Assembly: GCF_009931435.1 (NCBI RefSeq)
Contig: NZ_CP043414.1
Source: Escherichia coli
GTDB taxonomy: Bacteria > Pseudomonadota > Gammaproteobacteria > Enterobacterales > Enterobacteriaceae
Length of the DNA stretch: 64,000 nucleotides
Reading direction: 5' to 3' (one strand)
This document shows positions 8,449 through 48,506 of this stretch, piece by piece (the stretch's first letter is position 1; every line of letters starts with the position of its first letter). A program made the position numbers and the translations under genes. The notes under the pieces were generated by a model, which was not told the DNA's origin, ran no database searches, and worked only from the letters and a program-made list of their open reading frames with translations.

Positions 8449-8467
8449 TAGACAGGAGACAGTCACA

Positions 8468-9574: not shown

Positions 9575-9638
9575 TGCTTCAGGGCCCCAGTAAAGGGGCT
9601 CTGCTATCAATTTGCCATTTCAATTACGCGAAAATTAT

Positions 9639-10619: not shown

Positions 10620-10689
10620 GCGTTCATTAATTTGATTTATTTGCATCCATCAACGCTTTTAACTGCTCCGGCGTGCGGCACTATAATGG

Positions 10690-11440: not shown

Positions 11441-11593
11441 CTGGCCTTAACTTTCCCTGAATCTCTGACGATCCTCACCATTGATATTTTCTTCATTCCT
11501 CACCAGAGAAATAAAAAATCACTATACTCATCAAAATATGATGATCACCTTTATTCAGGTGATCACCTTACTATTTTATACGGAAAATAAATC

Positions 11594-12244
11594 ATGAATA
11601 TCCGTCAATCATTACATGACCGAATCTATGCAGAATACCCTCAACAGGCTAAAGATATATTACTGTATTTCCCCACTTATGAAATTATGCCATCGACCAT
11701 AAAAATGGTTATGATTAATGAGGTGGTAGCTATAACACCGCAAGAAGATTTTTATACACCAGAGTCTGGTTATTTTACGACTGTCGCCCGACAGTTAGCG
11801 CTGGCTGGATTATCGGCAAGTAGTGGCGAAGTCTTACTCAACCATGGTATCTACCTGACCTCCGCACTGAAACTACCTAAAACACAGATCACAGCCACAC
11901 CCGCGGAGATCATTCTCTGGTCACCTATTGTAGAATGGGAGCTCGAACTCTTTGCCAATATAAAAGTTATTTTCGTTGGCGGCGATATCGCGCGAAAATG
12001 CCTTAACATCATCGCGAAAAAGCAAACACGTAAACATGCCATCCCTTCAACTCCGACGTACAAACTGATGAATAGCGAATTAGTCTGGAAAGGAATAAGC
12101 ATACTTCCTGGATATATTCTTACCGGAAAAAACCTGCTCATTGAAAAGTCAAAAATCGAAATGAATGTCGAGCAATTAAGAAAAGGAATTGCGATTTATC
12201 GCAATAGTAACAGTAACCATACGAATAATTCAGTTCATGAATAA
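11594..12244 (+). CDS. Hypothetical protein, low GC; possible uracil-DNA-glycosylase-superfamily fold
   Basis: 216-aa ORF in AT-rich DNA. Four short motifs occur in the order typical of UDG-like folds (VMINEVVAITPQED; GIYLTSALKLP; KVIFVGGDIARK; IPSTPTY). The match is weak and based on pattern only. Confidence 0.4.
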   Translation: MNIRQSLHDRIYAEYPQQAKDILLYFPTYEIMPSTIKMVMINEVVAITPQEDFYTPESGYFTTVARQLALAGLSASSGEVLLNHGIYLTSALKLPKTQITATPAEIILWSPIVEWELELFANIKVIFVGGDIARKCLNIIAKKQTRKHAIPSTPTYKLMNSELVWKGISILPGYILTGKNLLIEKSKIEMNVEQLRKGIAIYRNSNSNHTNNSVHE

Positions 12245-12715
12245 GAGATGAATCATTAATAACAAGAAATCACTGACAAACCACCTGTAAAAGGTCAATC
12301 ATTTTAGTTCAATTTCCTTTGTCATGATTATATTTTTATCGTCCTGACGATACTATTAACAATTACAATATTTATACCCTCCCCTGAACAAACAGAAAAG
12401 AACTCATACATTCGTTTATAATTCTGGTAATCCTGGCATCATACGTTTAAAATTTAAGGTGTTTGTTTTATAATCATGGTTCCAAAGACTATTGGTCACC
12501 AGAAAATGCCAGCCTTTTCGTGCCAGCTATATTTGTCCAGTGTGTTACCCCATCCAAAAATCATCCACATCCTGATGTTATGTTAGATATAGAGAAAACA
12601 GGTTGTACTGTGCAATATGCTAACCGCATAAGCGAATATAATTTCTAAGCTGATATTGTCTGGCTGTTGGGAGCTAAACAATATAAATATCGCCAGTTGC
12701 CAGAACGGTTATATA

Positions 12716-12741
12716 GACCAGGAGCGTTTCGGCTCCTGGTC
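12716..12741. terminator. 10-bp-stem hairpin between convergent genes (putative bidirectional terminator)
   Basis: GACCAGGAGC-gtttcg-GCTCCTGGTC perfect inverted repeat located 17 bp beyond the stop of the UvrD-like gene and between convergent ORFs; flanking T-runs are short. Confidence 0.4.
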
Positions 12742-12757
12742 TGTTTCGGACATATTA

Positions 12758-26144: not shown

Positions 26145-26146
26145 GA

Positions 26147-29005: not shown

Positions 29006-29228
29006 CGGTTTTTCTGTCTATTTGGGGCAGTGGCGGTAACGTCATCCTGAAAAATGTGGCGCGGCACACTGCGATAAAAAAGAGGGCCTTAAAGATATCA
29101 TGAAGGCCCCCGGCAAAGTGACAAAATGGGAGGGAATGCGCATAAATTGCGCATGATTTTCAAACAAAAATTATTAAAAAGTGAGCTGGGTCAACTCCCC
29201 TGGAAGATATCCCCAGGGGAGCAATTAT
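29006..29228. promoter_or_regulatory. Intergenic region between druE-like and the SNF2 gene with two perfect inverted repeats (putative terminator and operator/promoter)
   Basis: CTCCCCTGG-aagatatc-CCAGGGGAG at 29195..29221 lies 8 bp beyond the druE-like stop. ATGCGCA-taaat-TGCGCAT at 29136..29154 is a second palindrome. AT-rich sequence follows toward the SNF2 start. Confidence 0.45.
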
Positions 29229-32200: not shown

Positions 32201-35200
32201 TCATACCACCAATGTCCACCCCCATCTCCATGGTCGTGGAGCAGTTCAGCACATTAACTTTGCCTGACTTAAATTGTTTTTCATTAAACTGGTTCTGCTC
32301 AGGCGTTCTCTGCGCAGAGTGTTCCTCCAGACGATACCAGCTATCTTTCAGGGCCAGTCGGTCGCTGCGAGTAGACCATAATCCTTCCTCGCGGGCATGT
32401 TGAATCAGCGCATTACTTTCCAGCCACTCCAGACGTTCTTCTCGGGCGATTTCTCCACCACCAGACAAACGCCAGTGACGTACAGGAAGCTCAGGCATTT
32501 CAATCAACACTGCTTTTTCAGGTGCAATTTCTTTGCTACCCGGCAAATACGGAGAGTATCCCAGTAACGTGACGTCTAACGCACGTCGAGTATAGGGGCA
32601 ACGCCACACTTGCTTTGGACTGTAAAATTCAGCTTGTTGTTTAATATCCAGCTGATAACCCGACTCAAACTGACGTAAGCAGGGTCGAATTGCATCCCAG
32701 ACCTCAATCATTAAGTGGTTAACTAACGATTTCCAGTGAGCCTGCTCAGGTTGTATTGCCGGAAAGACTGCAATTAATAGCTTAATGACCCGGTTATAAT
32801 GGCGATCGCGTATTTGTGGCCAAAGTTGATCACGTTTCTGCCCTTTGTTTTTTTTATCTGGACCCTGCAGCATTTTTACCGGGAAACGAGCCCCCATCCA
32901 GCGAGGGTATTGCTCGTTTTCGTAAAAAACGGCACTGTTTTCACGTATAAAGAAATCAAGAGTAATCTTCAATAAATTACGCCATTCCGCTAATTGCTTA
33001 TCGGGATCGGGTAATAATGTCTTCCAGTCCTGCGGGCAGGTTGTAACTTTATCAATAAATGGATAGTGAATGGCTACCAGACCCAGACTTTCGAGGGTCC
33101 AGGCATTTTTAGGGCGGCGACCAAACTCACTGTATAAACAAAAATCTGCAAACTGTTGTTTAGTAAGATCAAGCCCAGACAATTCTTTAAAACTGCCTCT
33201 CATTCTATCGGCAAGGTCCACACTGCCAACCAGCTGTTCAGACAGTGTTTGCCATGACATGGTTTTCTTCTGCTGATTGCCAGAGTTAGCCTGGAGTATT
33301 TGCATCGCTTCAGCATGATCCGGGCTTAAGGAACTCACCATCGGCTCGATAATTTTAAGTGCCTGAATGTCCGCCGGGCTAAGCTCTTCATTAGCAACCA
33401 TCGCTTTTTTCAGCGCGTCAATAGAGTTTTTTAAAGGAAGGATAGAAAACTGGGCAATAAAACTCTCTAACAATGCGCAGTGTGCCGGGCTGAGCTTTGC
33501 TGATGGCTCATTAATATTGGCCAGCTCCTGGTAGCAAAGAGCTCGCAACGTCGCTTTATCGGCATCCTGCTGTAAGCGGGCAGAAATGCGGGCAGTGCCC
33601 TGACGTGAATCCGTAAAGGTGAGCAGACGTCGACCATTAAACGGTCCTAACTGCTCTTCTCTTGTCTGCGGTAATGGTGAAAACTCCAGCAGAGTAGGAA
33701 TAATTTCATTTAAAAAAAAGGGCGCGCCAAGTCGAAGCGGACGGAATAAAGGATTATTTTTTCGTTGGGTGTCACCACAGCAAACACAAGCAAAGGAATT
33801 ATTACGTCCCTCACCTCGAGATTCCGGTCTTAACAGGTTTATTTCATAGTGCTTTTGCGCTTCACTATCAATTTTCCCCGCCGTCGTTTCTTCCAGTGAA
33901 ATGATATATTTTTCACCATCGCTCGCAATCAGACGATCAAATTGAGAGTTATTGTCTAATTCGTCGTTGTCTTCATCTTCAGAATAAACATCTACATCAA
34001 GAGCAAACTCATCCACTTCGGCAGCGGCGGGTTGCGCTACCAACCAGTTCGTTCCATCACCGCGCATCTCCTCTTTGGCAGACAAATAAGCTGAACCACA
34101 CCCGGAGCAACGTAAAACTTCAAATACCGGCGCACCACAGTCACAATATTGGCGCTGCTCAAACCATACCTGACCAAATGGCCAGTCACTCTGATTTAAT
34201 TCATGTGCTTTATGTGAGCATTGTTTGTTTGAACATGCCCATAGACCCGCCAGTGTTCTGATAAATCCATGCATACGTAATGGCGTAAAAGCCAGTTCAC
34301 CTTCTCGCGATCTTGCCATTAGATCGAGGAGTTGCAGTAGCTCACGGTGATTAATATCTGGCCAGGTTCTTCTGGCAACATTGAGCAACTCACTCAAACG
34401 TACTGCCTGCCGTCCGGGATGAGTTAACGCCTGACGCAATTGCTGGGCCACACGGTAATGACAAAGCTGTTGGTAAAGATCCTGAGGGCTCAGAGATTTA
34501 AGAGAAGTTAAAGATGTGGGGTATTCATGACGAATCAGCGACTCCGATACCCGCGGTATTTGTCGATAACCGCGAACCACTTTGACATCACGTTCTGTAA
34601 CGCCCGCGAGATCAGCGACAAATTTAGCAAGCTCCTTATTACCTTCAGGAGAGTCTTCACCAATAGTGGCAGAGGTCGCGATAATCTGCACAGGTTTATC
34701 TGTGCCGGGTCCAACATTGAAAGCCTGCATAACACGACGTAAAAGCAGCGCTAACTCAGCAGCCTGAGAACCAATATAACTATGGGCTTCATCCAGGACG
34801 ATATACTTTAACATCCCCTGAGACTTTTCGATGATTGGGGCATCTTTACGACGAATCAGCATATATTCCAGCATGGTGGTATTCGTCACCATGATGGAAG
34901 GTGGTGCTTCGTAAATGGCTTCCCGACTCAAAGCTTGTTCAGGTACTTTCAACTGATCTTCCTGAATTTCGTATTTGGTATGCCGGGTTTCGCCATTATA
35001 TAGCGCGAAGCGTATTTTCCCCTTAAATCCGCGCGTCCATTCGCGAAGCCGCTCCTGTTGACTGTTAATTAATGCATTTAACGGATACAAGAAAATAGCT
35101 TGTGTCCCTGTTAGTGACTGGCGGGTCGATTTTTGCTGACGAATAAGATCTTCCAGAACCGGTACCATAAAGCATTCTGTTTTCCCGGATCCCGTACCGC

Positions 35201-35552
35201 TGCTCACTAACAAGGATTTTTTGTCTTCCAGAATTGTTCGCCACGCAGTGAGTTGATGACGAAATGGCACTGGCGCTTTGCTCAATGCATCAACCAGCGG
35301 GCTGGAGATCAGCTTGTCCCGCAAATCCTCCATTGTTTCATCCGCAGGCATCCAGCCGAATGTACTTTCGAATACCGGGTCTGCAAGCAGTGACCCCTCC
35401 TGACCGGGAGGCTGAAAATATTGTGATTCCAGATAATGAGTCAACGACTTGCTCCGCAATGCCAACTGACTTACCACCGACCTCACCGCACGCTGATGAA
35501 GCTGATTTAGAAGTGGCGCATAATGCAGTTGCTGAACGTCCATCAATGACAT
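29229..35552 (-). CDS. druE: Giant 2107-aa DEAH helicase/DUF1998 protein, DruE-like (Druantia signature protein)
   Basis: SGTGSGKTECFMVPVL (I), VLDEAHSYIGSQ (II), ATSATI (III), QRAGRAGRRGES (VI), then Cys/His clusters CLSCGRAE...CHGHVHKD and DCSCDKFCHHCLLSY (DUF1998-like). Same architecture as the 2113-aa protein. Start overlaps the stop of the upstream 1119-aa gene by 10 bp. Confidence 0.6.
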   Translation of the reverse strand: MSLMDVQQLHYAPLLNQLHQRAVRSVVSQLALRSKSLTHYLESQYFQPPGQEGSLLADPVFESTFGWMPADETMEDLRDKLISSPLVDALSKAPVPFRHQLTAWRTILEDKKSLLVSSGTGSGKTECFMVPVLEDLIRQQKSTRQSLTGTQAIFLYPLNALINSQQERLREWTRGFKGKIRFALYNGETRHTKYEIQEDQLKVPEQALSREAIYEAPPSIMVTNTTMLEYMLIRRKDAPIIEKSQGMLKYIVLDEAHSYIGSQAAELALLLRRVMQAFNVGPGTDKPVQIIATSATIGEDSPEGNKELAKFVADLAGVTERDVKVVRGYRQIPRVSESLIRHEYPTSLTSLKSLSPQDLYQQLCHYRVAQQLRQALTHPGRQAVRLSELLNVARRTWPDINHRELLQLLDLMARSREGELAFTPLRMHGFIRTLAGLWACSNKQCSHKAHELNQSDWPFGQVWFEQRQYCDCGAPVFEVLRCSGCGSAYLSAKEEMRGDGTNWLVAQPAAAEVDEFALDVDVYSEDEDNDELDNNSQFDRLIASDGEKYIISLEETTAGKIDSEAQKHYEINLLRPESRGEGRNNSFACVCCGDTQRKNNPLFRPLRLGAPFFLNEIIPTLLEFSPLPQTREEQLGPFNGRRLLTFTDSRQGTARISARLQQDADKATLRALCYQELANINEPSAKLSPAHCALLESFIAQFSILPLKNSIDALKKAMVANEELSPADIQALKIIEPMVSSLSPDHAEAMQILQANSGNQQKKTMSWQTLSEQLVGSVDLADRMRGSFKELSGLDLTKQQFADFCLYSEFGRRPKNAWTLESLGLVAIHYPFIDKVTTCPQDWKTLLPDPDKQLAEWRNLLKITLDFFIRENSAVFYENEQYPRWMGARFPVKMLQGPDKKNKGQKRDQLWPQIRDRHYNRVIKLLIAVFPAIQPEQAHWKSLVNHLMIEVWDAIRPCLRQFESGYQLDIKQQAEFYSPKQVWRCPYTRRALDVTLLGYSPYLPGSKEIAPEKAVLIEMPELPVRHWRLSGGGEIAREERLEWLESNALIQHAREEGLWSTRSDRLALKDSWYRLEEHSAQRTPEQNQFNEKQFKSGKVNVLNCSTTMEMGVDIGGMSLVAMNNVPPAPANYLQRAGRAGRRGESASAAITLCKNTAHGMEVFKDPLWAFNTTASAPRVRFGSSSIVQRHVNALVLGLFLRAEVPDATKLSCKWFFEGDESQCLRFLHWLNNQADQLADKLKRLTQGTVLMSLTATQLLTRTQAMMQQVDIRWRSQLAILLENIEALKADNSAWEETPAGKAIAYQLRDYRGAYLFSKLISEAFLPGHGFPVGVVNFNYLTADELEKRRAIKATQADPNEGGESFSRRIEKLPSRDLPTALREYAPGADVVLGGKVYRSSGIMLGKVLASGQELSGDHHIPWFWHCRKCGAGATSATHPVECSHCKADIQQLDVKRYLQPVGFATDIRYQAHNDVSMPAQLPWKDPRVLVPSSVWVSLPDAGLGRYRFSHSGELFHFSEGEFGHGYAICLSCGRAESQTQPQRTPENLKNPERENTHYLLRGGSNDRQGSNKLCHGHVHKDLWLGYSSRTDMVELQLNDDNGLLIRDEVAARSLAVALREGLAHKLGIENTELGVTTQQARDINGYTGYSIFIYDNNAGGAGYAVQLIDHWADVFNYARKLLDCSCDKFCHHCLLSYDSQHYVNRLDRHHALTLLTNVRLQRLNLAPEYQYFGDGSRVETNPLSLRIAQCLNSEIYDSCSLVLAGPQEQWDFAQWPLFKELLQFASSGGHVELLVATPLANLTDSSRHQLSALAAMPGGRLQVKSIATAQLMQGKGRWLAQVTREGQSQQWAADDSATVAPGELWGQSASSPVVTLKGTSGKTFSGQTLSAEDLLPALPTGAVRINLCEQLDGPLEGFGSRFWSLVTQQHAGWKQAFTRHKEITHVEYSDRYLNSPFTARLLGEILTELVEQGMAERASLTVCVKKLDYNSRQHDALYNAWLNEEDRQQVVTTLLEEGYLGPAWPGAISWLTGDNQSTEHGRELTVTFSDGSQHYVLLDMGLSYWRCIEDTFFDFALRVPQQVERLANTRARAVAPGNDLRSYVIAG

Positions 35553-38500
35553 ACTCCTGCTTGTTCAAAATAATATTGATAGATTACCCCTAATTGCTGT
35601 GGGGCTTGCTGATAGTGAAATTCAAAAAGCGCAGACAGTTGATGTATCAGGTTATTATCTTTTTGGGTTAACAGCGCTGCGACTAACATCAAATTAAAAC
35701 GTTTTTCAAGCCGTGAGTGATATTTATCTTCAATCCAAAGCTTATTAAAAACAGATTTTAACTCTGGAGTAATAGCACTAGACCAAAGTTCTTTAGGGAA
35801 GATACTGATACGCCCAAAGCTGTCGGGGTTCCTTAATAGCATCTGTTTAGCTTCATTAAACTGCTCACGACTAACAGTTGGCAATACATCACAACCGGTT
35901 GGTAGGCTCTCACTATATGTAAGTAACATATTCGCAATGGGAGCCAGCCGACGATCGATATGTGCACGATGGTTCATAAAAGCAATAAAGGGTTGCAATA
36001 TATGTAATGCTAATGTTTTATCGTTAATCTGTTTTTCCAGATAAGTCCAACATTTTTGGAAAACATCTTTCCAGATTGAAACGGGAATCCATCCCCATGA
36101 AAAGGGTAATTCTTCCTGTATATCATAAATCGTATCGCTATCACCAGAAAGACATGATGATATTAACAATTGAACAACCACGCGGTAATTACTCGAAATA
36201 CCTCTGAACAAGTCCAGATCCAGCAAGGATAAGCCATTATTCATTTTGTACTTCTTAATATACTCTGTTAATAAACAGCAATAATTTTGCAATGGGTTGT
36301 TATCTATTTCAAAAATTAGCTCATTAAAATTTTTTTTGCGCTGTTCTGGGTCTGCTTCGCATAGAGCATTTAGTAATAAATCATTTGTCTGCAATACAGG
36401 TAGCATCCATTTAATTACTGGTGCAATGCGAGCTGTACCATCAAGTTTTCCCACAATTAACCATGGACTATCCTGAACATTCAGAGCTGAAAGATCATAA
36501 GCAAATTCATCTTTTTTTAGCAATGATTTGTGTAAGCCAGGATCCTTAAGAGAAATAGCATCAACAACCAGTTCGTCTATTCTATTTGCAGGAAAAACAA
36601 CAGAATTTTTTATATCAACCAGCAACCCTTGATCGTGTTCAATAAAACTACCATCGTAGCGTTTAATATTGAGTGTTGCTTTATCCTTTCCAAATCTGTC
36701 AGAGTAAAAATCAACACATAATGTACTATTGCTGTTCCATGCACATGCCAGCATAGCATTTAGCAAATTATAGTTCTCATAAAGTGAAATTTGTTGTAAT
36801 TTGTCATTGCGTCCTGATAAAAGAGGAAGGTCGGCATGTAAATAACGGAATTTTTCAGCTACTGGATTTTCATCCAATAACTCGATATTAAGATATCCTC
36901 TTCCAGCACATGATATGGTTAATAACTCAGCATCTATTCCATGCAAATGTGCTATAGATGCCACACCATCAAAATGAACAGAACCATCATTAGTTACAAA
37001 TCGGCCACCGCTAACCGGCTTAGGTAATAATAGTTTAAGATTAGAACCATCTTTCCAGGAGACCCGTAAATCAACGGTATTTTCCAGCATCTGCGATGAA
37101 TTATAATAAATAGCACACTCGTTTTGTGAATAATCGGACTTAAGTGTTACTTTTTCATTGTTTGAATATTTATCAATTCTAGTATCCGTTATACCAGAAA
37201 GCATAATAATGCCTTGCTGAGCACTCTCAGGTATAATATTAATATCGAAGTCTGCTGGTAAAACTACAACTTTACCGCTAAATAAAACCTCATCATTAAC
37301 TATTCGCCGGACTTCTATCTGTCCTTTTGGCATTTCTGATGCGACAGAATACCAGGCATTGTTACCTGAACGAATGGAACGCCAAAAAAGTTCTTTCTCC
37401 GGTACAATGCCATATTGCAGATCCTTTTTCCAACCGATCTTCGGCCAGGCTCGATGGACAGGATAATCCGATTTAACCAGTTCAACTTCTGTCGATTTAA
37501 TATAATATTCAATCGCAGAATCATAAAGTTGCTGGGTGCGAATTGTACAAACAGCACCATCATGTAAAACAACGCTAAATACTCCACTTATTTTAGTTAA
37601 GCTGCGTTCACTGTTTTTCAGCAACCTTGGGATATCAAACTCACCTTCTCCACTAATATCTAAATGGCTATTTTTCGGTAGCGAAATAAACAGAGCATTT
37701 AGCCTGGAACTCACAGACCCCATACCGACAAGTTTTAGCTGCGATTCACTCTCATTCATCGCTTCAAAAACCCAGGGGAGTTCTTCAGTAAGTTCATAAC
37801 CGCCTTTTGGAATTGTGTGGCCTAACAGAATTGGACCTTCATGAAGCGACAACGAGATTTCGGCCATTGCATCTGCACCAGAGAGCTTTTGCATCGCAAT
37901 AGGTAATAACTCGACCCGCCAATCTTGCTGCTCATAACGGCTTAGCATTGCCAACCTTGCCCCGCCATTTCTCCATTTTCCTGAAATGATGAGTCGGGTC
38001 TGCTCCGGCTGAATATGGCATTCAAACAAAGAGGTTAACTGTTCTGTACGCATTGTGGCCGGGAATCGGAACCGGGCATCACAATACCAACTGTCATCAA
38101 CATCGACCCAGATTCTTTCAACCTGAAGACTACTTGCACTGCGTATTTCAGAAGATTGAGAAAGTAATCGCCTTACAATCTCTGCAGCATTCGCTTCGGG
38201 GAGAACGAGTGGAAGTTGAAGATGCCAGTCTGGAGAGAGCTTACGTAATGCAGAAACGGGATCACTGCTTTGAGGTGGATGCTCACTAAGTAATCGGCAG
38301 AGAGTCTCGCAGAATTCACCGGCTATTTCATAGACCAGTTCGTTTTGCATTGTGACAGGAATCGTATCGCCTAATTCTTGTGCAATTTTAGCGGCAGGAT
38401 ATTGAGATGCTTGCCCACGAAGCGCCTGATATATCCTTCTGAAATAGGTAATCAAATAACCGCTCTCATTTTCAATCATGCGGATAGGTAAACCACCTTC

Positions 38501-38902
38501 ACAAGCCAGTGTATGCAGATAACCCGAAGCTTGCCCCAGGTTTCTTATCTTTCTTTTCCAGTAGCGAATGCCATCATTAACCAGCTTCTGTCGATGAACA
38601 TACGGAACTTTCCAGTCAATAGAATCTAAAATTGTGTCCCATTTAGGGTGTCCGACCGTATGAGTCCGGCGGATAAACTCTGCGGCATATATGCTAAATA
38701 GAACATCGCTATAGGAAATGAATATCGTTCTTGGATAACTACGAGGGGCATATGTACGCAGTAGTTCTGCCAAACTTTCGTACTCTGTATCAGTACAACG
38801 GTAAGCATATAACGCCCGTCCATCAGCTCCGGATAATGAACGGCGACTAAAAAACATGTTAAGCCATTGCAAAAGTGGGTTAACTGGAGTTTTCACAAGC
38901 AA
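35543..38902 (-). CDS. druH: 1119-aa protein of unknown function, DruH-like partner of DruE
   Basis: Large low-GC ORF with no recognisable catalytic motif, translationally coupled to the DruE-like gene. The pairing and size agree with the two-gene Druantia type III layout as I recall it; assignment is by context only. Confidence 0.5.
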   Translation of the reverse strand: MLVKTPVNPLLQWLNMFFSRRSLSGADGRALYAYRCTDTEYESLAELLRTYAPRSYPRTIFISYSDVLFSIYAAEFIRRTHTVGHPKWDTILDSIDWKVPYVHRQKLVNDGIRYWKRKIRNLGQASGYLHTLACEGGLPIRMIENESGYLITYFRRIYQALRGQASQYPAAKIAQELGDTIPVTMQNELVYEIAGEFCETLCRLLSEHPPQSSDPVSALRKLSPDWHLQLPLVLPEANAAEIVRRLLSQSSEIRSASSLQVERIWVDVDDSWYCDARFRFPATMRTEQLTSLFECHIQPEQTRLIISGKWRNGGARLAMLSRYEQQDWRVELLPIAMQKLSGADAMAEISLSLHEGPILLGHTIPKGGYELTEELPWVFEAMNESESQLKLVGMGSVSSRLNALFISLPKNSHLDISGEGEFDIPRLLKNSERSLTKISGVFSVVLHDGAVCTIRTQQLYDSAIEYYIKSTEVELVKSDYPVHRAWPKIGWKKDLQYGIVPEKELFWRSIRSGNNAWYSVASEMPKGQIEVRRIVNDEVLFSGKVVVLPADFDINIIPESAQQGIIMLSGITDTRIDKYSNNEKVTLKSDYSQNECAIYYNSSQMLENTVDLRVSWKDGSNLKLLLPKPVSGGRFVTNDGSVHFDGVASIAHLHGIDAELLTISCAGRGYLNIELLDENPVAEKFRYLHADLPLLSGRNDKLQQISLYENYNLLNAMLACAWNSNSTLCVDFYSDRFGKDKATLNIKRYDGSFIEHDQGLLVDIKNSVVFPANRIDELVVDAISLKDPGLHKSLLKKDEFAYDLSALNVQDSPWLIVGKLDGTARIAPVIKWMLPVLQTNDLLLNALCEADPEQRKKNFNELIFEIDNNPLQNYCCLLTEYIKKYKMNNGLSLLDLDLFRGISSNYRVVVQLLISSCLSGDSDTIYDIQEELPFSWGWIPVSIWKDVFQKCWTYLEKQINDKTLALHILQPFIAFMNHRAHIDRRLAPIANMLLTYSESLPTGCDVLPTVSREQFNEAKQMLLRNPDSFGRISIFPKELWSSAITPELKSVFNKLWIEDKYHSRLEKRFNLMLVAALLTQKDNNLIHQLSALFEFHYQQAPQQLGVIYQYYFEQAGVCH

Positions 38903-39113
38903 CCTGCCTTCCTTTGATACAATTCGTAACAGGTTACTATCATCATAAAAAAGCTCAACCCGATGAACTCGCTAAAAATGAGACAAATCATTTATATCTC
39001 GAAAAAACTTGTTACAATCATGAGCGCTACACCGAACTTAACCATATAAATTATGTGCGTTTTGTTTATTTTTTAAACAATTACAACTATCCATTATTTA
39101 CACAGGTATCAAA

Positions 39114-40766
39114 ATGTTAGCGCAGCTTTTTGAGCAGTTGTTTCAATCGATAGACTCTACACTGATCACCAATATTTTCATCTGGGCTGTTATATTCGTA
39201 TTTTTATCAGCGTGGTGGTGTGACAAAAAAAATATACATAGTAAGTTTAGAGAATATGCTCCAACCTTAATGGGGGCATTAGGTATTCTGGGTACTTTCA
39301 TTGGTATTATTATTGGGTTACTCAATTTTAATACTGAAAGTATTGATACCAGCATCCCCGTATTATTAGGCGGCCTAAAAACAGCATTCATTACAAGCAT
39401 TGTAGGTATGTTTTTTGCCATTTTATTTAATGGAATGGATGCTTTCTTTTTTGCCAATAAACGAAGTGCGTTAGCAGAAAATAACCCTGAATCTGTTACA
39501 CCTGAACATATCTATCATGAATTAAAAGAGCAGAACCAGACTCTGACTAAATTAGTCTTGGGTATTAACGGTGATAGTGAAGGTTCTCTTATTGCTCAAA
39601 TAAAATTACTACGTACTGAGATTAGCGATTCCTCGCAGGCACAATTAGCTAATCACACTCATTTCAGTAATAAGCTTTGGGAACAACTTGAACAATTTGC
39701 AGATCTAATGGCAAAAGGTGCTACAGAACAAATTATTGATGCTTTACGACAAGTCATTATTGATTTTAATGAAAATTTAACTGAACAGTTTGGTGAAAAC
39801 TTTAAAGCACTTGATGCCTCTGTAAAAAAACTTGTTGAGTGGCAGGAAAATTATAAAACGCAAGTTGAGCTGATGTCAGAACAATATCAACAAAGTGTCG
39901 AGTCTCTGGTTGAAACAAAAACTGCGGTTGCCGGGATTTGGGAAGAATGTAAAGAAATTCCTCTGGCTATGTCTGAACTGCGTGAAGTGCTTCAGGTGAA
40001 CCAACATCAAATCAGCGAACTCTCCCGCCATTTAGAAACCTTTGTCGCTATCCGCGATAAAGCTACAACCGTATTACCTGAAATACAGAACAAAATGGCT
40101 GAAGTGGGTGAACTGCTGAAATCCGGAGCTGCAAATGTTAGTGCATCTCTTGAGCAAACCAGCCAGCAAATACTTCTTAATGCAGATTCAATGCGCGTGG
40201 CCCTGGATGAAGGTACCGAAGGATTCAGACAATCGGTTACCCAAACACAACAAGCATTTGCCTCGATGGCACATGATGTCAGCAATTCCTCCGAAACTCT
40301 AACCAGCACGTTAGGTGAAACAATTACTGAAATGAAACAAAGTGGTGAAGAATTCCTGAAGTCACTAGAGTCGCACTCGAAAGAATTGCATAGAAATATG
40401 GAACAAAATACGACTAATGTAATTGATATGTTCAGTAAGACTGGTGAAAAGATTAACCATCAACTATCCAGTAATGCCGATAATATGTTTGATTCAATCC
40501 AGACATCATTTGATAAGGCAAGTGCAGGGCTGACTTCTCAAGTCAGAGAATCAATTGAAAAATTTGCTCTATCCATCAACGAGCAGTTACATGCTTTTGA
40601 GCAAGCAACTGAACGTGAGATGAACCGTGAAATGCAATCATTAGGTAATGCTCTGCTTTCAATCAGCAAAGGTTTTGTCGGTAACTATGAAAAACTTATT
40701 AAAGATTACCAAATAATTATGGGACAGTTACAAGCATTAATTTCTGCTAATAAACATCGAGGGTAA
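39114..40766 (+). CDS. zorA: ZorA-like MotA/ExbB/TolQ-family membrane protein with a long coiled-coil tail (Zorya)
   Basis: N-terminal hydrophobic helices (IFIWAVIFVFLSAWW; MGALGILGTFIGIIIGLL; FITSIVGMFFAILFNG) followed by about 400 aa of polar, heptad-like low-complexity sequence. Immediately followed by a MotB/OmpA-like gene and an HNH gene. Confidence 0.65.
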   Translation: MLAQLFEQLFQSIDSTLITNIFIWAVIFVFLSAWWCDKKNIHSKFREYAPTLMGALGILGTFIGIIIGLLNFNTESIDTSIPVLLGGLKTAFITSIVGMFFAILFNGMDAFFFANKRSALAENNPESVTPEHIYHELKEQNQTLTKLVLGINGDSEGSLIAQIKLLRTEISDSSQAQLANHTHFSNKLWEQLEQFADLMAKGATEQIIDALRQVIIDFNENLTEQFGENFKALDASVKKLVEWQENYKTQVELMSEQYQQSVESLVETKTAVAGIWEECKEIPLAMSELREVLQVNQHQISELSRHLETFVAIRDKATTVLPEIQNKMAEVGELLKSGAANVSASLEQTSQQILLNADSMRVALDEGTEGFRQSVTQTQQAFASMAHDVSNSSETLTSTLGETITEMKQSGEEFLKSLESHSKELHRNMEQNTTNVIDMFSKTGEKINHQLSSNADNMFDSIQTSFDKASAGLTSQVRESIEKFALSINEQLHAFEQATEREMNREMQSLGNALLSISKGFVGNYEKLIKDYQIIMGQLQALISANKHRG

Positions 40767-40772
40767 TCGATC

Positions 40773-41480
40773 ATGGATAAGATTATAGGGAAACAATTAC
40801 CTAAAAAAGATCAAGATAATGAACACTGGGTATCCATGTCAGACCTAATGGCAGGGCTGATGATGGTTTTTATGTTCATATCTATTGCTTATATGCACTA
40901 CGTACGTATTGAAAAAGAAAAAATTAAAGAAGTTGCCGTAGCCTACGAGAATGCTCAGTTACAGCTTTATAATGCTCTGGATATTGAGTTTGCAAAGGAT
41001 TTACAAGACTGGGATGCAGAGATCGATAAACAGACTCTGGAGGTTCGATTTAAATCACCGGATGTTTTATTTGGCTTAGGAAGCACAGAGCTAAAACCAA
41101 AGTTTAAACTCATTCTTGACGACTTCTTTCCTCGCTACCTAAAAGTTCTAGATAATTATCAGGACCATATTACTGAAGTCCGCATTGAAGGTCACACAAG
41201 TACTGACTGGACAGGAACAACGAATCCTGATATTGCTTATTTTAATAATATGGCACTATCACAAGGTCGTACACGTGCAGTATTACAATACGTTTATGAC
41301 ATAAAAAATATCGCGACACACCAACAATGGGTTAAAAGTAAATTTGCCGCAGTAGGTTATTCATCTGCACATCCCATTCTTGATAAAACCGGCAAGGAGG
41401 ATCCTAATCGCTCTCGTCGTGTCACCTTCAAAGTTGTAACAAATGCCGAATTGCAGATTAGAAAGATTATTCAGGAGTAA
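40773..41480 (+). CDS. zorB: ZorB-like MotB/OmpA-family peptidoglycan-binding protein (Zorya)
   Basis: Single N-terminal transmembrane helix carrying an Asp (SMSDLMAGLMMVFMFISIAY), with a C-terminal OmpA-like motif (NMALSQGRTRAVLQYV...SRRVTF). Separated from zorA by 6 bp. Confidence 0.65.
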   Translation: MDKIIGKQLPKKDQDNEHWVSMSDLMAGLMMVFMFISIAYMHYVRIEKEKIKEVAVAYENAQLQLYNALDIEFAKDLQDWDAEIDKQTLEVRFKSPDVLFGLGSTELKPKFKLILDDFFPRYLKVLDNYQDHITEVRIEGHTSTDWTGTTNPDIAYFNNMALSQGRTRAVLQYVYDIKNIATHQQWVKSKFAAVGYSSAHPILDKTGKEDPNRSRRVTFKVVTNAELQIRKIIQE

Positions 41481-41483
41481 GAG

Positions 41484-42587
41484 ATGAAATTATCTATCGA
41501 CATTTCAGAACTTATTCAATTAGGGAAGAAAATGTTACCAGAAGGAGTCGATTTTTTTCTGGATGAATCCCCTATTGACTTTGATCCTATAGATATTGAG
41601 TTATCCACGGGTAAAGAAGTTAGTATCGAAGATCTTGACCCTGGTAGCGGGCTTATCTCTTATCATGGCCGCCAGGTTCTTTTATATATTCGGGACCATT
41701 CAGGGCGTTATGATGCGGCTATCGTAGATGGCGAAAAAGGAAAACGTTTTCATATTGCCTGGTGCAGAACTCTTGATGAAATGCGCCATAAAAATCGATT
41801 TGAAAGGTATCATGCAACTAACCGCATAGATGGTTTATTCGAAATTGATGATGGTTCAGGTCGGAGCCAGGATGTTGATTTACGGGTATGTATGAATTGC
41901 CTCGAACGACTTAATTATAAAGGAAGTATTGATAAACAACGAAAAAGAGAGATTTTTAAATCATTCTCATTAAATGAGTTTTTTTCAGATTATAGTACCT
42001 GTTTTCGTCATATGCCTAAGGGTATCTATGACAAAACAAATAGTGGGTATGTCGAAAACTGGAAAGATATATCTAAATCAATACGAGAAAAGGCAAATTA
42101 TGTTTGTAATGATTGTGGCGTGAATTTATCAACCGCCAAAAACTTGTGCCATGTCCATCATAAAAATGGCATCAAATATGATAATCACCATGAAAACCTT
42201 CTTGTTCTGTGCAAGGATTGCCATCGAAAACAGCCCCTCCACGAAGGTATATTCGTTACCCAAGCTGAGATGGCTATCATTCAACGTTTACGTTCCCAAC
42301 AAGGGTTATTAAAAGCAGAATCCTGGAATGAAATATATGACCTGACTGATCCATCAGTGCATGGTGATATTAATATGATGCAACATAAAGGCTTTCAACC
42401 TCCTGTTCCTGGGTTAGATCTTCAAAACTCAGAACATGAAATTATTGCAACCGTAGAAGCTGCATGGCCAGGCCTTAAAATTGCAGTTAACCTTACTCCC
42501 GCCGAAGTCGAAGGATGGAGAATATATACCGTGGGTGAGCTGGTTAAAGAAATACAAACAGGAGCCTTTACGTCAGCAACGTTGTAA
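41484..42587 (+). CDS. zorE: ZorE-like HNH endonuclease (Zorya type II effector)
   Basis: HNH motif CNDCGVNLSTAKNLCHVHHKNGIKYDNHHENLLVLCKDCH. Lies 3 bp downstream of zorB, completing a ZorA-ZorB-HNH trio. Confidence 0.6.
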   Translation: MKLSIDISELIQLGKKMLPEGVDFFLDESPIDFDPIDIELSTGKEVSIEDLDPGSGLISYHGRQVLLYIRDHSGRYDAAIVDGEKGKRFHIAWCRTLDEMRHKNRFERYHATNRIDGLFEIDDGSGRSQDVDLRVCMNCLERLNYKGSIDKQRKREIFKSFSLNEFFSDYSTCFRHMPKGIYDKTNSGYVENWKDISKSIREKANYVCNDCGVNLSTAKNLCHVHHKNGIKYDNHHENLLVLCKDCHRKQPLHEGIFVTQAEMAIIQRLRSQQGLLKAESWNEIYDLTDPSVHGDINMMQHKGFQPPVPGLDLQNSEHEIIATVEAAWPGLKIAVNLTPAEVEGWRIYTVGELVKEIQTGAFTSATL

Positions 42588-42796
42588 ATTCCGAAACTCC
42601 GTGAAAGTTAAGACTTTCACGGAAGATAAATAAAATTCTCCTGATTTGTGACTCAAATTATAAAAGTCGTTTATGGCATAACTTGTCTGTTTTTTTGGTG
42701 TAATAGGTATAAAGGCATATGCTATGGTTAGCCTTATATTTAAAACTTTCCTCATACGGGTGAAGGTTAAAGCTTGGTAGATAGGTTACAGTCACA

Positions 42797-43406
42797 ATGA
42801 ATAAAGCAATAACGGTGCTTGCTATAATGATGGCTTCATTTTCCGTAAATGCGTATGTATTACCGGAAACGCCTGTGCCATTTAAAAGTGGTACCGGAGC
42901 AATTGATAACAACACTGTCTACATTGGTTTAGGTAGCGCAGGTACGGCATGGTACAAGCTGGAGAAACAGACCAAAGATAAAAAAATGGACAGCGTTAGC
43001 TGCATTTCCTGGTGGACCGAGAGATCAAGCAACTTCTGCATTTATTGATGGCAATCTGTATGTGTTTGACGGCATTGGCAAAAACAGTGAGGGCTTGACT
43101 CAGGTATTTAATGACGTTCACAAATACAACCTCAAAACCAATAGCTGGGTTAAATTGATGTCGCACGCGCCGATGGGCATGGCGGGTCATGTGACATTTG
43201 TACACAACGGCAAGGCTTATGTTACTGGCGGTGTTAACCAGAATATCTTCAATGGCTATTTTGAAGATCTTAACGAAGCTGGAAAAGATTCAGCGTACCG
43301 GTCACCGGAGAACTGGATGACGGTACTGCGAAGCAGTCATTTCAGTCGGGGGATGATTGTAGACAAATTTGTTGACGCTATTTTGCGGTTTTGGCGTGAA
43401 GGGTGA
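42797..43406 (+). pseudogene. Degenerate nanM'-nanS' fusion remnant: diverged second copy of the nanM 5' part joined to the nanS 3' end, with a frameshift
   Basis: MNKAITVLAIMMASFSVNAYVLPETPVPFKSGTGAIDNN... parallels the NanM N-terminus and frameshifts after ...QTKDKK. The second frame continues NanM-like (...GKNSEGLTQVFNDVHKYN...EDLNEAGKD) and then jumps directly into the NanS C-terminus (SAYRSPENWMTVLRSSHFS...FWREG). The following roughly 55 bp are near-identical to 10620..10677 after the intact nanS. Confidence 0.8.
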
Positions 43407-44143: not shown

Positions 44144-45073
44144 TTGAACAGCAGAAAATTTGCGAGCATGATCGCAATTATTTCACTGCCAGGGATATCA
44201 ATGGCTTCCAGTAAATCGCTACAGCAGGCAATTGCCAATATAAAAATCTGGCACAAGGGTGAACAGCGCGCGCCGCATAAGCCATTGTTATTGCTATACG
44301 TATTAGCGGGATACCTGAATGGACATCCGCGCCTTTTCGATTATGGCTCGGAAATCTACGAACCTCTGCACAGTTTACTGGAACGTTTTGGGCCACAGCG
44401 TTCACAGTACCGACCTGATATGCCGTTCTGGCGATTACAAGGCGACGGATTCTGGCAATTACACAATGCCGAACTTTGCTCAACAGCAGGGAGTAGCCGA
44501 CAACCGCCAGTGAAGGAACTGACCGAACACCGCGTTGCAGGCGGTTTCGATGAACAGCACTATGCCCTGGTAATCGGCAATAAAAAACTCATCAATACCC
44601 TGGCGCAACAGATACTCGAAGCGCACTTCACCGAGAGCATTCAGGAAGAAATTGCTGACGAGCTGGGTTTTGATCTCCAGCAAATCCGTAAACAGCGCGA
44701 CCCGTTATTTCGCAAACTTGTATTGCGCGCATATAACTACCAGTGCGCGATATGTGGCTTTAATATGCGCCACGATGACACCACCGTCGCACTGGAAGCA
44801 GCGCATATAAAATGGAAACAGCACGGCGGTCCTTGTGAAATTCCTAATGGCCTGGCGCTTTGTGCAATACACCATAAAGCCTTTGATAAAGGATCGATTG
44901 GCCTGGATGAAAATATGCGGGTACTGGTCTCGGATGCGGTAAACGGCGGAGGGATCGTTGAGAAACTATTCTGGGATTTTGACGGGAAAACTATTGCGTT
45001 ACCACAGGTGCGTAAAAATTACCCTTTTGAGGGGTTTGTGGAGTGGCATCGAAAAGAGGTTTTTAGGGGGTGA
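44144..45073 (+). CDS. HNH-motif nuclease-like protein, divergent from the preceding HNH gene
   Basis: C-terminal CAICGFNMRHDDTTVALEAAHIKWKQHGGPCEIPNGLALCAIHHKAFDKG (HNH-like). Shares a 79-bp divergent intergenic region with the 43414..44064 gene. The true start may be an internal Met. Confidence 0.55.
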   Translation: MNSRKFASMIAIISLPGISMASSKSLQQAIANIKIWHKGEQRAPHKPLLLLYVLAGYLNGHPRLFDYGSEIYEPLHSLLERFGPQRSQYRPDMPFWRLQGDGFWQLHNAELCSTAGSSRQPPVKELTEHRVAGGFDEQHYALVIGNKKLINTLAQQILEAHFTESIQEEIADELGFDLQQIRKQRDPLFRKLVLRAYNYQCAICGFNMRHDDTTVALEAAHIKWKQHGGPCEIPNGLALCAIHHKAFDKGSIGLDENMRVLVSDAVNGGGIVEKLFWDFDGKTIALPQVRKNYPFEGFVEWHRKEVFRG

Positions 45074-45695
45074 GGTTGATAACTATCGCAGTATGTTCAA
45101 TATTGCTGACATAATCAGTGCAGGATCTTGCCGCTAGTTTACAACTCGCCTTCGATAGCGGCGCAAAACGAGTTCTGTTGCCGATATCCTCGGCTATGGA
45201 TATTCCAACAGTTCCGGCAGAGTTGTTTACCAAGTTTCAGGTAAGTTTTTACTCAGAACCGGTTGATGCGGTTTATAAGGCGCTGGATGTGAATTAACAC
45301 ATTCCTCAGCTTATTTACAAAAGGATTATTCCCATTTGATATAATATCAGTGCCAATTTACTTTTTTCAATGGAATATATCTCGGCTAAATAACAATAAA
45401 ACTTATCGCTAATGGATTAAATAAACAATTTTCTAATTTATTTCACCACCTTTGATATAGAAATTGATGGTGTTGTCGCTGCCATTGCTTATGGTGATGA
45501 TAAAATCCACGTTTCTGGATCGGTGCGTAGAAAATCATCACTTCCTTGATATTTTGATGCGATATGATCATACCGTTCCGTAGTACCAATTTCAACTTCA
45601 GGCTAAACCCCAACATTAAAAAAATTAGAGTTATTCACTGATTATATTATCAATAATATAATCAGTGAATAACATGGACTATATAATAAATTGCT

Positions 45696-47744
45696 CTAAT
45701 CATTTCCCTTACGAATATATGGGCCAAAAGCCCAAGAATCATAATAAGGGTGATGGACTAATTTTTCATTAAATCGAACACTATAAGTTAATTTTTTTAT
45801 ATTTTTACGTACAGCATTAATACTGGGCAAAGAGGAAAGATAATCTATAAACTTATCGATAGTGATTTTCCCTTCGCAACACTCAAACCCATCAATGATA
45901 TTTTTCGCCATTTTTCCATTTTCATTTGTTTGATATATCACTCCAGGTATTCGTTGAAAAAAACTAGATAATGCATATTTGTCCGCTACATATGTATCAT
46001 CCACATGATATTTCCCACCGAGCATAGTTGTAGTAACAATAAGCTTATACACACCTTTGGGTTGCCATGTTGATGGTAGTTCGAATTCTTTAATGATCAC
46101 ATCAAGATGATTAAGATAATGTTCAGAAATTCGATTTATTTGTTGAAAATAAGAACGCATAAATTTATTATTATGATCATGTATTAATGAGCTATCTCCA
46201 ACGATGTTACACACTTGCTGATAGTACTTACCATAATATATTGGTTGACCATTTGATTTTAGTTCTGTAAAAATCAAACAATCATCCAGGAGAATCACGC
46301 AATCGCACTGATAATTAGCATGAGCATCAATTGGAGAAGCTTTAATCCCCGCATCACGAACTTGTTTTATAAATTGTTGCTCATGAAATCGCCCTTTACT
46401 TGCTTGAGAAATTTTTTTGGAACCAAATAATGACATTAGAGAGCGAGTCACTGAGCTATTTGCTATTAATGCAGGCATTAAGCATAAACCGTCCATACAG
46501 GGAATAAATGGGCAATCATTAAGATCATGTGATTTTGAATTGAAGGTAAAATAATCTATCAGTTTTTTTGCTGCATCTGCTGCAATCCCCTTACGTTGAA
46601 AGAATGATAACCAACTCTCACGGCTTTTTATGACCAGCCAGCGATCCAACTGTAGGGGTATAGGTTTTGTCGATGAAAATCTTTTGCTCATTTCTTCTTT
46701 AGATAACTCGACTAAACATTGATAAGCGTGCACCCAATTAAATAATGATATATTCCCATATTCTTCATGAAGGTCATCAGGAGACATATTTTCCAACTCG
46801 CTTAAATGAAATGAGCTAAAAACGCCATCAGAATTTAAGTAAGATGGCATATGATCCTTTACCCAACTATTTAGATGAAAATGTTTGTTACTAAATTCAT
46901 GAACTTCGCTATATAGATGTGACGCTCTCATCATTAGTCTATTTCTTGCAATCTCATAATCTCGGTATAAACAAAAACTATCAACCTCAAGAGAGTAAAT
47001 GTTATTATCCAATTTTGTAAATACTGCACTACTTAGTCTGAAAAAGTCTCTTACTCTGCTTAATGAGTCAAAAACATTCCACTCATTAAGGTACCCTCCC
47101 ATTGAAAGCAAGGTTTGTTTATTCACACAAGAAGTTAGTTTCAATGGCCCATGAGTCCGTAAATAAGAAAATATTCTTCCGGTGTAATTGGCTACCTCAT
47201 CAAATGCCCTATCGATAACTCGAAAATATTCGATATCAGGTTCAGCATGAATATTAATATTTTCAGAAACGATAAATAATGGAAAAATCCTCTTCATTTT
47301 TTTAGGATCATTGACCACAACCAAGGATGATAATGATGATAAAAACATCTCACAAAACATGATGAGATTAAGTATTAATGCATGTGATTTTTTTGTATTT
47401 TTACGCCAAATACCAGCACATTTTGCAGCCCCAAAGAAAGAATTATTTATATCATGCATAATTTTACATTGACTCTCGAACTCAGAGATTAGTTCAATGT
47501 TATCAGGAAATGAGTTTACTAGCTCATTAATACATTTTTTGAATGTATTGTTATACTCAACTTCAGTCTGAACTGAAAATCTATTATAATAGATGGAAGA
47601 TATTCTCAGCACATCCAAGGCGATATCTATACTAATATCATCTCTTTTTATGTACTCACAAAAAAAAGAACAAAACTGTTTCGGGTCGTTAGCAAGATTA
47701 CTAATTCTAGTGGTATCATAAACTTTTTCCATTTTTCCATACAT
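45696..47744 (-). CDS. Hypothetical 682-aa protein, very low GC, adjacent to leuX
   Basis: Long uninterrupted ORF in strongly AT-rich DNA with no recognisable motif by eye. Its position next to the tRNA and its composition suggest horizontal acquisition. Confidence 0.5.
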   Translation of the reverse strand: MYGKMEKVYDTTRISNLANDPKQFCSFFCEYIKRDDISIDIALDVLRISSIYYNRFSVQTEVEYNNTFKKCINELVNSFPDNIELISEFESQCKIMHDINNSFFGAAKCAGIWRKNTKKSHALILNLIMFCEMFLSSLSSLVVVNDPKKMKRIFPLFIVSENINIHAEPDIEYFRVIDRAFDEVANYTGRIFSYLRTHGPLKLTSCVNKQTLLSMGGYLNEWNVFDSLSRVRDFFRLSSAVFTKLDNNIYSLEVDSFCLYRDYEIARNRLMMRASHLYSEVHEFSNKHFHLNSWVKDHMPSYLNSDGVFSSFHLSELENMSPDDLHEEYGNISLFNWVHAYQCLVELSKEEMSKRFSSTKPIPLQLDRWLVIKSRESWLSFFQRKGIAADAAKKLIDYFTFNSKSHDLNDCPFIPCMDGLCLMPALIANSSVTRSLMSLFGSKKISQASKGRFHEQQFIKQVRDAGIKASPIDAHANYQCDCVILLDDCLIFTELKSNGQPIYYGKYYQQVCNIVGDSSLIHDHNNKFMRSYFQQINRISEHYLNHLDVIIKEFELPSTWQPKGVYKLIVTTTMLGGKYHVDDTYVADKYALSSFFQRIPGVIYQTNENGKMAKNIIDGFECCEGKITIDKFIDYLSSLPSINAVRKNIKKLTYSVRFNEKLVHHPYYDSWAFGPYIRKGND

Positions 47745-48421
47745 CCTATTGTCTAAATTACTATAAAATTAGCCACTTAACTAATAATTATAAATTTCAT
47801 CTTTTGCACCTTGCATTTTTATAACCAATGAAATCTACAACAAGCAACTGATGGATAATCCGATATTGGTCGCATTTAATGGCATGGTAGCAAAGTTTTC
47901 ATCACATACCTCCTTTGCACCAGAATAAACGCCAGAGACCTGAAATTGCGAGTACACTACAGAAATTGTACTGCCGGTCCCATCAGCATAAAACCATAGT
48001 TACACAGGTAATCATCATTATTCACCAAGATAATAAATATTATTCGGTAGAATAGCGTTCTCAGGTGGTCAGTAAAATTGTCTTCAACAAGATGTCTGCG
48101 CATCTCGTCTGCTAGCCCTACATAACTGCTCTCGACCGAAACTATTTATTGAATGTTCACCAAGGTGGGCGTGGAGACAAAATGACGTCTTTTGATATTA
48201 GCTACCTGAGCCACATGGTCAAAACGTTCAAGTAGCATAGCGAAACCACCCTGCCCACGTAATGTGGACGATGCAGCTTCCAGCCAGAGCAAACTTGGGA
48301 CCATCGACTACCAAATGAAGAATACTGAACTGCTTTTCTGGCAGGCCTATATACTGCACGGATATGGGTGATTTCAGACACAAAAAAAGCCGCTCTTGAG
48401 CGACTCGATTTGCATACGGTG

Positions 48422-48506
48422 TGGTGCCGAAGGCCGGACTCGAACCGGCACGTATTTCTACGGTTGATTTTGAATCAACTGCGTCTACCGATTTCGCCAC
48501 TTCGGC
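48422..48506 (-). tRNA. leuX: tRNA-Leu (anticodon CAA), leuX
   Basis: The minus-strand sequence GCCGAAGTGGCGAAATCGGTAGACGCAGTTGATTCAAAATCAACCGTAGAAATACGTGCCGGTTCGAGTCCGGCCTTCGGCACCA forms the acceptor stem, carries a CAA anticodon in a TTCAAAA loop, has a long variable arm and ends in CCA. Confidence 0.95.

Follow-up and report, generated by a model that had tools for sequence, protein, structure and literature searches.

A half-size, distant relative of the anti-phage nuclease Upx encoded beside leuX in Escherichia coli is a candidate one-gene defence protein

Upx was reportedly described as a one-gene system by Gao et al. 2020. SeUpx, whose structure was solved by electron cryo-microscopy in 2026 (PDB 9wuf), consists of an N-terminal domain (residues 1-515), a middle domain (516-714) and a C-terminal domain (715-1272), and its authors noted an active-site geometry like that of FokI (PMC13099982). 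The protein guards E. coli from phage PhiV-1, for which E1176 and K1178 are required, and in vitro it is a Mg2+-dependent 3'-5' exonuclease on single-stranded DNA, subject to inter-domain regulation and activated by phage gp16 (PMC13099982). Upx homologues, whose median length is 1,245 residues, turn toxic when they are co-expressed with the ATPase domains of phage large terminases (bioRxiv 10.64898/2026.04.30.721860 and its supplement), and experiments have shown Upx to be an anti-phage nuclease encoded by one gene and responsive to a phage protein (PMC13099982; bioRxiv 10.64898/2026.04.30.721860). Here we describe a gene beside the tRNA gene leuX in a 64,000-nucleotide stretch of Escherichia coli DNA (RefSeq assembly GCF_009931435.1, contig NZ_CP043414.1; hereafter the window), whose product, the leuX protein, carries a predicted nuclease centre and is a half-size, distant relative of Upx.

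The gene is an uninterrupted open reading frame (ORF) at 45696..47744 on the minus strand; it is the gene nearest to leuX on that side, where defence genes are densely packed. Counted from the first ATG it encodes 682 residues; its true start is probably the second ATG (M5, at 47732), 12 nucleotides inside that frame, because six of six full-length orthologues tested begin at the equivalent position and most NCBI records have 678 residues, and we number residues on the 678-residue protein unless 682 is stated. The ORF is AT-rich, with 32.9% GC overall and 0.29-0.36 locally, against ~0.50-0.55 in the flanking core genes. The original prediction for this stretch, of a long, intact 682-residue frame in AT-rich DNA, between the HNH genes and leuX and with about 680 bp of non-coding sequence up to the tRNA, is therefore confirmed in both respects, the spacer measuring 677 bp. 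Within it (47745..48421), a scan of Rfam gave zero matches, and the only ORF of at least 60 residues was a 90-residue frame (48228..48500), most of which overlaps leuX. Neither a small partner ORF upstream of the gene nor a regulatory RNA was found in this leader; the leaders of orthologues are, moreover, short and unrelated.

The same prediction had called the ORF an orphan with no recognisable motif, and neither description survives the comparison with relatives. In a word-indexed search, E. coli copies shared 99% identity with the protein, Salmonella copies 75%, and homologues from Izhakiella, Xenorhabdus, Pectobacterium and Pantoea, all full-length and collinear, 56-41%; a HMMER search, exhaustive over 1.84 billion representatives, placed the protein in a family of at least 227 clusters (50% identity) at E<=1e-3, or 114 at E<=1e-10. 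Cluster representatives are nearly all 600-730 residues long (~650), collinear end to end, and come from Enterobacterales and Bacillales; the named members (Pantoea/Mixta, Bacillus safensis, B. velezensis, B. amyloliquefaciens and Paenibacillus) are all labelled 'hypothetical protein', while UniRef calls the Izhakiella orthologue a NERD domain-containing protein. In the literature, no mention of the E. coli protein accessions was found. GC content is 30-33% in six of the seven copies measured from different host genera (the exception is the Izhakiella copy, at 53.5%), and such uniformity across unlike hosts is the signature of a horizontally moving gene.

Over a conservation alignment of 109 family members (~19% mean identity), P408, G447, D477, E490 and K492 are invariant, and D403, D406, E451 (97%), Q531 and D584 are nearly so, as is R534 in a subset of 65 sequences. 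Conservation is concentrated at residues 390-600, residues 1-360 being poorly conserved. From the alignment, E451...D477...E490-x-K492 is a textbook PD-(D/E)xK nuclease signature, which together with Q531 makes up a complete catalytic set; Q531, R534 and D584 all fall, like this signature, within the nuclease core (residues 442-600). Both hallmarks of the superfamily are present, namely the conserved acidic residues and lysine (E...D...E-x-K) and a restriction-endonuclease-like alpha-beta-beta-beta-alpha-beta core.

Library models barely register this core in the E. coli protein. Direct searches of NCBIfam, PHROG and PDB sequences gave zero matches, Pfam a chance-level match only (PHB_depo_C, E=0.16), and PADLOC a single weak match to the nuclease core of the candidate PDC-M29B (E=0.0014). 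Among 65 relatives, Pfam models matched in a minority (NERD in 12/65, weakly and at best 2.1e-5; Card1_endonuc in 2/65; Mrr_cat in 1/65), as did the PADLOC models CARF_PDDEXK (10/65) and PDC-M29B (7/65), and the family profile, searched against the PDB, matched the catalytic core of Can2 (7bdv) at the active site. The family is an unnamed, conserved nuclease family that is unrecognised by any library tested.

An AlphaFold2 model built from the 109-sequence alignment (pLDDT, the local distance difference test score as predicted, 93.2; predicted template modelling score, pTM, 0.92) divides the protein into four parts: a helical region (1 to ~355), a small alpha/beta module bearing the motif S-x-D-L-x-D-C-P-F-I, the nuclease core, with canonical core residues from 446 to ~600, and an alpha/beta extension of ~80 residues. 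A Foldseek search of the PDB returned one match below 1e-3, to Upx (9wuf; E=6.4e-6, probability 1.0, 655 alignment columns). The similarity extends outside the catalytic core, and Upx is also the best structural match of residues 1-440 alone.

At the level of profiles, hhalign aligned residues 327-574 of the family with residues 937-1210 of Upx, represented by an alignment of 10 sequences (probability 89.5%, E=2e-6). The KG-x-F-E motif, the strands bearing D and E-C/L-K and the Q..R helix after them were all in register in this alignment; the core against a single Upx sequence gave a probability of 92.4%. The N-terminal profile had no significant hhalign match to the Upx profile. We conclude that the C-terminal module is probably a remote homologue of the nuclease module at the C-terminus of Upx, at hhalign probabilities below 95%, and that it is structurally closest to Upx. 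On our reading, the family shares this module with Upx and differs in having its own N-terminal domain and ~100 extra C-terminal residues. As a separate observation, the family motif 'S-x-D-L-x-D-C-P-F-I ... L-x-x-x-P-S' resembles 'tDL..fPLIe..dgL.vLsPs' at residues ~186-237 of the Upx homologue (E=0.075, not significant), a look-alike whose shared pattern is 'DL..P(L/F)I...L.vlPS'. Upx has a second related stretch before its C-terminal core, hinting at an internal repeat, likewise not significant and not relied on here.

By the Upx family's own criteria, the leuX protein is not an Upx but a half-size, distant relative. The PADLOC Upx model (PDLC02221) matched neither the protein at E<=1 nor any of the 65 relatives at E<=0.01; as a positive control, a distant but true Upx encoded on a Bosea vestrisii plasmid (1237 residues), which we used as the Upx representative in comparisons, scored 8.5e-77 on this model and 3.8e-45 against 9wuf. 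PF28173 (PF28173.1), as read from a precomputed Pfam column, is assigned to 29 of 29 Upx homologues retrieved and to 0 of 90 leuX-family hits, of which 89 carry '-' and the remaining one PF06071. The Upx architecture, of ~1,250 residues in N-terminal, middle and C-terminal domains with two nuclease centres, contrasts with 678 residues and one core.

The gene encodes a real, conserved protein under purifying selection: between E. coli and Salmonella, the ratio of non-synonymous to synonymous substitution rates (dN/dS, Nei-Gojobori) is 0.106 overall, 0.104 in the N-terminal domain and 0.100 in the core. Such values, ~0.1 over the whole length, argue against the ORF being a decaying relic, that is, an intact-looking but unexpressed or functionless leftover of an eroded defence island, as do the 678-residue frame, intact in most records, a 90%-identity cluster of 3,303 member sequences, catalytic residues that are invariant across phyla and a terminator of its own. 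We consider a relic extremely improbable even though remnants lie all around the gene (the BrxL C-terminus, a PLD-like fragment, a truncated HNH gene and nanM/nanS fragments), no convincing promoter was found close to the start, and the APEC O1 and UTI89 records are frameshifted at a T8 tract (Table 1). In APEC O1 the frame change at this tract leaves a PGAP product of 587 residues from M96, the same 587-residue product as in UTI89. A sequencing error, phase variation or inactivation specific to the lineage could each account for it.

Table 1 Positions of the leuX-proximal gene, the parts of its predicted product and the surrounding features in the window
Feature	Position	Strand	Evidence or remark
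Coding sequence, 678-residue protein from probable start M5	45696..47732	-	ORF call, orthologue starts, dN/dS 0.106 vs Salmonella; stop codon 45696..45698
All-helical N-terminal domain, residues 1-326, proposed sensor/regulatory	46755..47732	-	Confident helical model; mean column conservation 0.15-0.31; no specific PDB fold except Upx
Pre-core module, residues 327-441, motif S401-x-D403-L-x-D406-C-P408-F-I	46410..46754	-	D403, D406, P408 (near-)invariant; aligns with Upx homologue ~937-1080
Predicted PD-(D/E)xK (NERD-like) nuclease core, residues 442-600	45933..46409	-	Invariance over 109 sequences; Can2, NERD, Card1 and CARF-PDDEXK matches; fold; hhalign to Upx core
Predicted catalytic codons	E451 46380..46382; D477 46302..46304; E490 46263..46265; K492 46257..46259	-	Within nuclease core
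Alpha/beta C-terminal extension, residues 601-678	45699..45932	-	Secondary structure E608-612, H625-642, E645-666
T8 homopolymer tract, codons ~22-25 (682-residue numbering)	47660..47667	-	APEC O1 copy shifts frame here
Intrinsic-terminator-like hairpin	45630..45673	-	20-bp stem and T-run, 23 nucleotides past stop codon
Non-coding leader, leuX to ORF	47745..48421	-	677 bp; no RNA family, no credible ORF
leuX, tRNA-Leu(CAA)	48422..48506	-	Same strand as ORF; own terminator 48387..48406
Druantia III	DruH 35543..38902; DruE 29229..35552		
Zorya II: ZorA, ZorB, ZorE	39114..42587		PADLOC
HNH gene, 216 residues	43414..44064	-	Weak type IV restriction PADLOC matches
Phosphorothioate-DNA-dependent restriction endonuclease (second HNH gene of pair)	44144..45073	+	NF045808, E=5.5e-131
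BrxL remnant, last 59 codons	45118..45297	+	TIGR02653 positions 617-675, E=3.8e-24
Phospholipase-D-like (PLD-like) gene fragment	45367..45580		~85% identical to end of phospholipase-D-like gene after brxL in other E. coli (e.g. NZ_CP156718)

Outside E. coli, the gene is solitary, without a conserved partner: ten contexts of homologues share no common neighbour, and a two-gene system was rejected, as the neighbours differ in all ten. Defence and mobile-element genes recur around these relatives. One adjoins a type I restriction-modification system and a Cap4-like nuclease; another is part of Tn7 cargo, with Gabija and an SLFN-like gene next to it; a Salmonella relative sits at the edge of an integrative and conjugative element (ICE), near YjhX toxin and AbiJ_NTD4 genes; one adjoins an integrase and Vsr; and one has genes for the antitoxins CcdA and TacA nearby. 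In Pantoea, the homologue (41% identity; 10001..13792 of the retrieved locus) is 1.7 kb from tRNA-Leu(CAA), with an Hcp-Ntox44 toxin module between them, so the association with leuX recurs across genera.

These contexts also bear on whether the nuclease serves a mobile element or the host, in competition between elements, in recombination or repair, or as a toxin-like addiction module left from an old leuX island. The ICE edge, the integrase and the Tn7 cargo are compatible with such a role, as are the integration hotspot itself, where P4-like satellites and islands insert beside the gene, and the fold hits, in which PD-(D/E)xK nucleases such as NucS, MGME1 and Holliday junction resolvases also occur; yet the gene is tied to no single element type and has no conserved, antitoxin-like small partner, repair nucleases are normally core genes rather than accessory genes at 33% GC in 6% of genomes, and the coupling of a conserved nuclease to an N-terminal domain that evolves fast is typical of defence sensors. 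On balance, we find an element or host role quite unlikely.

In E. coli, where the gene is patchily distributed, the ORF and a 656-bp upstream region travel together in ~331-332 of 5,426 complete genomes (~6%), and the leader always accompanies the ORF (332 genomes). The leuX side of the leader is an insertion point, with an island in UTI89 and a P4-like satellite with Gabija-like genes in WEC lying between leuX and the leader; the ORF is therefore a resident flank of these elements and not their cargo. Directly upstream of the ORF leader, the WEC satellite (19694..31207 of the retrieved locus) comprises genes for an integrase and a primase-helicase, psu, and capsid-size and delta-like genes; its Gabija-like pair consists of an ATP-dependent nuclease and a helicase. 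To the right of tRNA-Leu(CAA) in the window are ahr, idnK, idnD and idnO, and a duplicated leuX 3' end, looked for in the window as an island boundary, was not found. A phage origin was rejected, as four IMG/VR matches are E. coli chromosomal leuX regions beside an integrated element. One of these database copies (UViG_2617271340_000008, 8001..10268) has an internal duplication of ~220 bp, with overlapping matches to window positions 47051..47273, which could reflect either misassembly or a genuine disruption.

On the other side of the ORF, the window holds a succession of defence genes and their remains. The C-terminal remnant of the BrxL protease between the phosphorothioate-DNA restriction gene and the ORF marks the former end of a BREX system, most of the PLD-like gene appears to have been replaced by the ORF, and the two remnants together point to turnover of defence genes at this spot. 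Strains such as APEC O1 have the ORF without the Zorya/Druantia block, so the ORF does not depend on that block. The interval 14869..29005 is occupied by three genes, one like type IIG restriction-modification enzymes, one for a DrmD-like helicase and one that is a second DruE-like gene. The last of these (14869..21210, minus strand, 2113 residues) is distinct from the DruE of Druantia III, and its ~75 C-terminal residues match the C-terminal region of ZorE (PADLOC ZorE2, E=5.7e-9); with the 1644-residue type IIG-like and the 952-residue DrmD-like products it may form a DISARM-related system. Relative to E. coli with only nan, HNH, the phosphorothioate enzyme and the ORF, the block of Druantia III, Zorya II and the helicase-methylase genes (10674..43289) is a ~32-kb insertion into the nan region, and frameshifted nanM fragments are left at 42797..43406. 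The HNH gene is reduced to a fragment in APEC O1, UTI89 and WEC.

The two HNH genes form a divergent pair, with no dnd/ssp modification genes nearby. Their identity, as a phosphorothioate-DNA-dependent endonuclease and a gene with type IV-like PADLOC matches, gives some weight to a reading in which the leuX protein is itself a restriction-type nuclease (modification-dependent, type IV-like or structure-specific) whose helical domain binds DNA and which cleaves non-self DNA constitutively. This would still be defence, the locus resembles an immigration-control region, and one relative matches Pfam Mrr_cat. Such direct reading of DNA nevertheless appears unlikely: Pfam and a fold search of residues 1-440 found no modification-reading or DNA-binding domain (SRA, SBD, winged helix and others), the gene has no methyltransferase partner, nor an NTPase partner of the kind expected of a type IV or McrBC-like enzyme, and Upx, the best full-length structural relative, is reportedly activated by phage proteins.

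We favour the reading that the leuX protein is a defence protein of the Upx type, a sensor and nuclease in one self-contained chain, horizontally acquired and kept in the leuX defence hotspot, to which we assign a probability of roughly 55%. In an uninfected cell, the helical N-terminal domain would keep the nuclease inactive or free of substrate; a phage cue, either a protein (compare the terminase ATPase for Upx) or a replication intermediate, would engage this variable domain; the Mg2+-dependent nuclease would then degrade phage and/or host nucleic acid, be it ssDNA, dsDNA or RNA; and the infection would stop, possibly at the cell's cost. The single-gene defence or abortive-infection role put forward in the original prediction gains from the complete predicted nuclease site, the solitary gene, the relatives beside defence genes and a confident structural model whose closest PDB fold is the one-gene anti-phage nuclease Upx; the check proposed with PADLOC, for its part, named no defence system.

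Several points weigh against this interpretation. The PADLOC, Pfam, NCBIfam and PHROG models all fail to recognise the protein. The link to Upx is remote, with 7-12% identity, root-mean-square deviations of 7-22 A, hhalign probabilities below 95% and an N-terminal domain without a significant sequence match, and about half of Upx is absent, perhaps with it the N-terminal region for which terminase binding was modelled, so the Upx mechanism is not simply transferable. The defence context is suggestive, being guilt by association rather than a statistical test of neighbourhood enrichment, and the Izhakiella and B. velezensis homologues stand alone among core genes. The APEC O1 and UTI89 copies are, as described above, frameshifted. 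Its defence activity, gating, trigger and substrate and the outcome for the cell are inferred, and the leuX protein is a good candidate for a one-gene anti-phage system.

More tentatively, the family may constitute 'mini-Upx' immune nucleases: a widespread, unnamed family, with the E. coli protein as founding member, that combines the Upx C-terminal nuclease module with a helical, rapidly evolving sensor of its own and with an additional domain at the C-terminus. Given that sensor and that extra domain, the phage cue would differ from the terminase sensed by full-length Upx, and this would be a new one-gene system that current tools miss in ~6% of E. coli genomes. If the protein does defend, it is a compact (2 kb) one-gene system missed by the libraries tested, in clinically important E. 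coli and Salmonella; the Upx nuclease module would then exist in a half-size form with a different sensor, helping to dissect how sensing is coupled to cleavage in Upx-type proteins, and one more gene of the leuX hotspot, home already to Zorya II and Druantia III, would be explained. Should it not defend, what is left is a conserved nuclease family that lacks annotation and merits naming.

Among known systems, ZwsA (Zowangsin) of P. aeruginosa invites comparison by its layout: it is solitary and island-borne, with the architecture VHS-DUF647-NERD-S4, in which helical N-terminal domains precede a NERD core (E535, D567, E580, K582) and a small domain that binds RNA at the C-terminus (bioRxiv 10.64898/2026.04.06.716636). 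By description and motif spacing, which are the sole terms of this comparison, the leuX protein is likewise solitary and island-borne, with a helical N-terminus, a NERD-like core, a small C-terminal alpha/beta extension and the same D-13-ExK spacing, and the E-to-D spacing of 32 in ZwsA falls within the family's range of 25-35. The leuX protein could accordingly be imagined as a stand-alone RNA-targeting NERD endonuclease that cuts RNA-phage genomes or transcripts, a possibility we hold to be very unlikely: the catalytic lysine of ZwsA lies ~90 residues further from the N-terminus and no family member in the alignment has its catalytic lysine near 582, no RNA-binding domain (S4 or other Pfam) was detected in 65 relatives, and Upx, the closest solved relative, prefers single-stranded DNA.

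NERD (PF08378) and the CARF-associated PD-DExK nucleases (Can2, Card1, VC1899) have the same catalytic core, but the leuX protein itself is below all thresholds, with no NERD match even at E<=10, has a different, helical N-terminal region, and lacks a CARF or other cyclic-nucleotide sensor domain; the Can2 and CARF-PDDEXK matches for which coordinates are shown cover the nuclease core only, and the fold search of residues 1-440 gave no CARF or Rossmann-like match. Unlike type IIS restriction and nicking enzymes with FokI-type cleavage domains (FokI 2fok, BspD6I), the leuX protein has neither FokI-like DNA-recognition domains nor a methyltransferase partner. Shedu (SduA) and Hna are defence proteins in which other domains restrain a PD-(D/E)xK effector nuclease, but their N-terminal domains are different (DUF4263 context and helicase, respectively) and there is no sequence match.

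Upx remains the closest comparison. Like it, the leuX protein is a single, partner-less polypeptide from defence islands with a predicted C-terminal PD-(D/E)xK core (D...ExK); unlike it, it has 678 rather than ~1,245 residues, continues for ~100 residues past the nuclease core, where the Bosea homologue ends ~27 residues past the aligned core (the alignment stops at 1210 of 1237), and may lack the Upx N-terminal domain, with its second, atypical nuclease and modelled terminase binding. The protein is not conceptually unexpected, and it offers a natural, testable 'half-Upx' in important pathogens: a one-gene PD-(D/E)xK defence protein of the Upx type is a known kind, and what is new here is an unnamed family with a different architecture.

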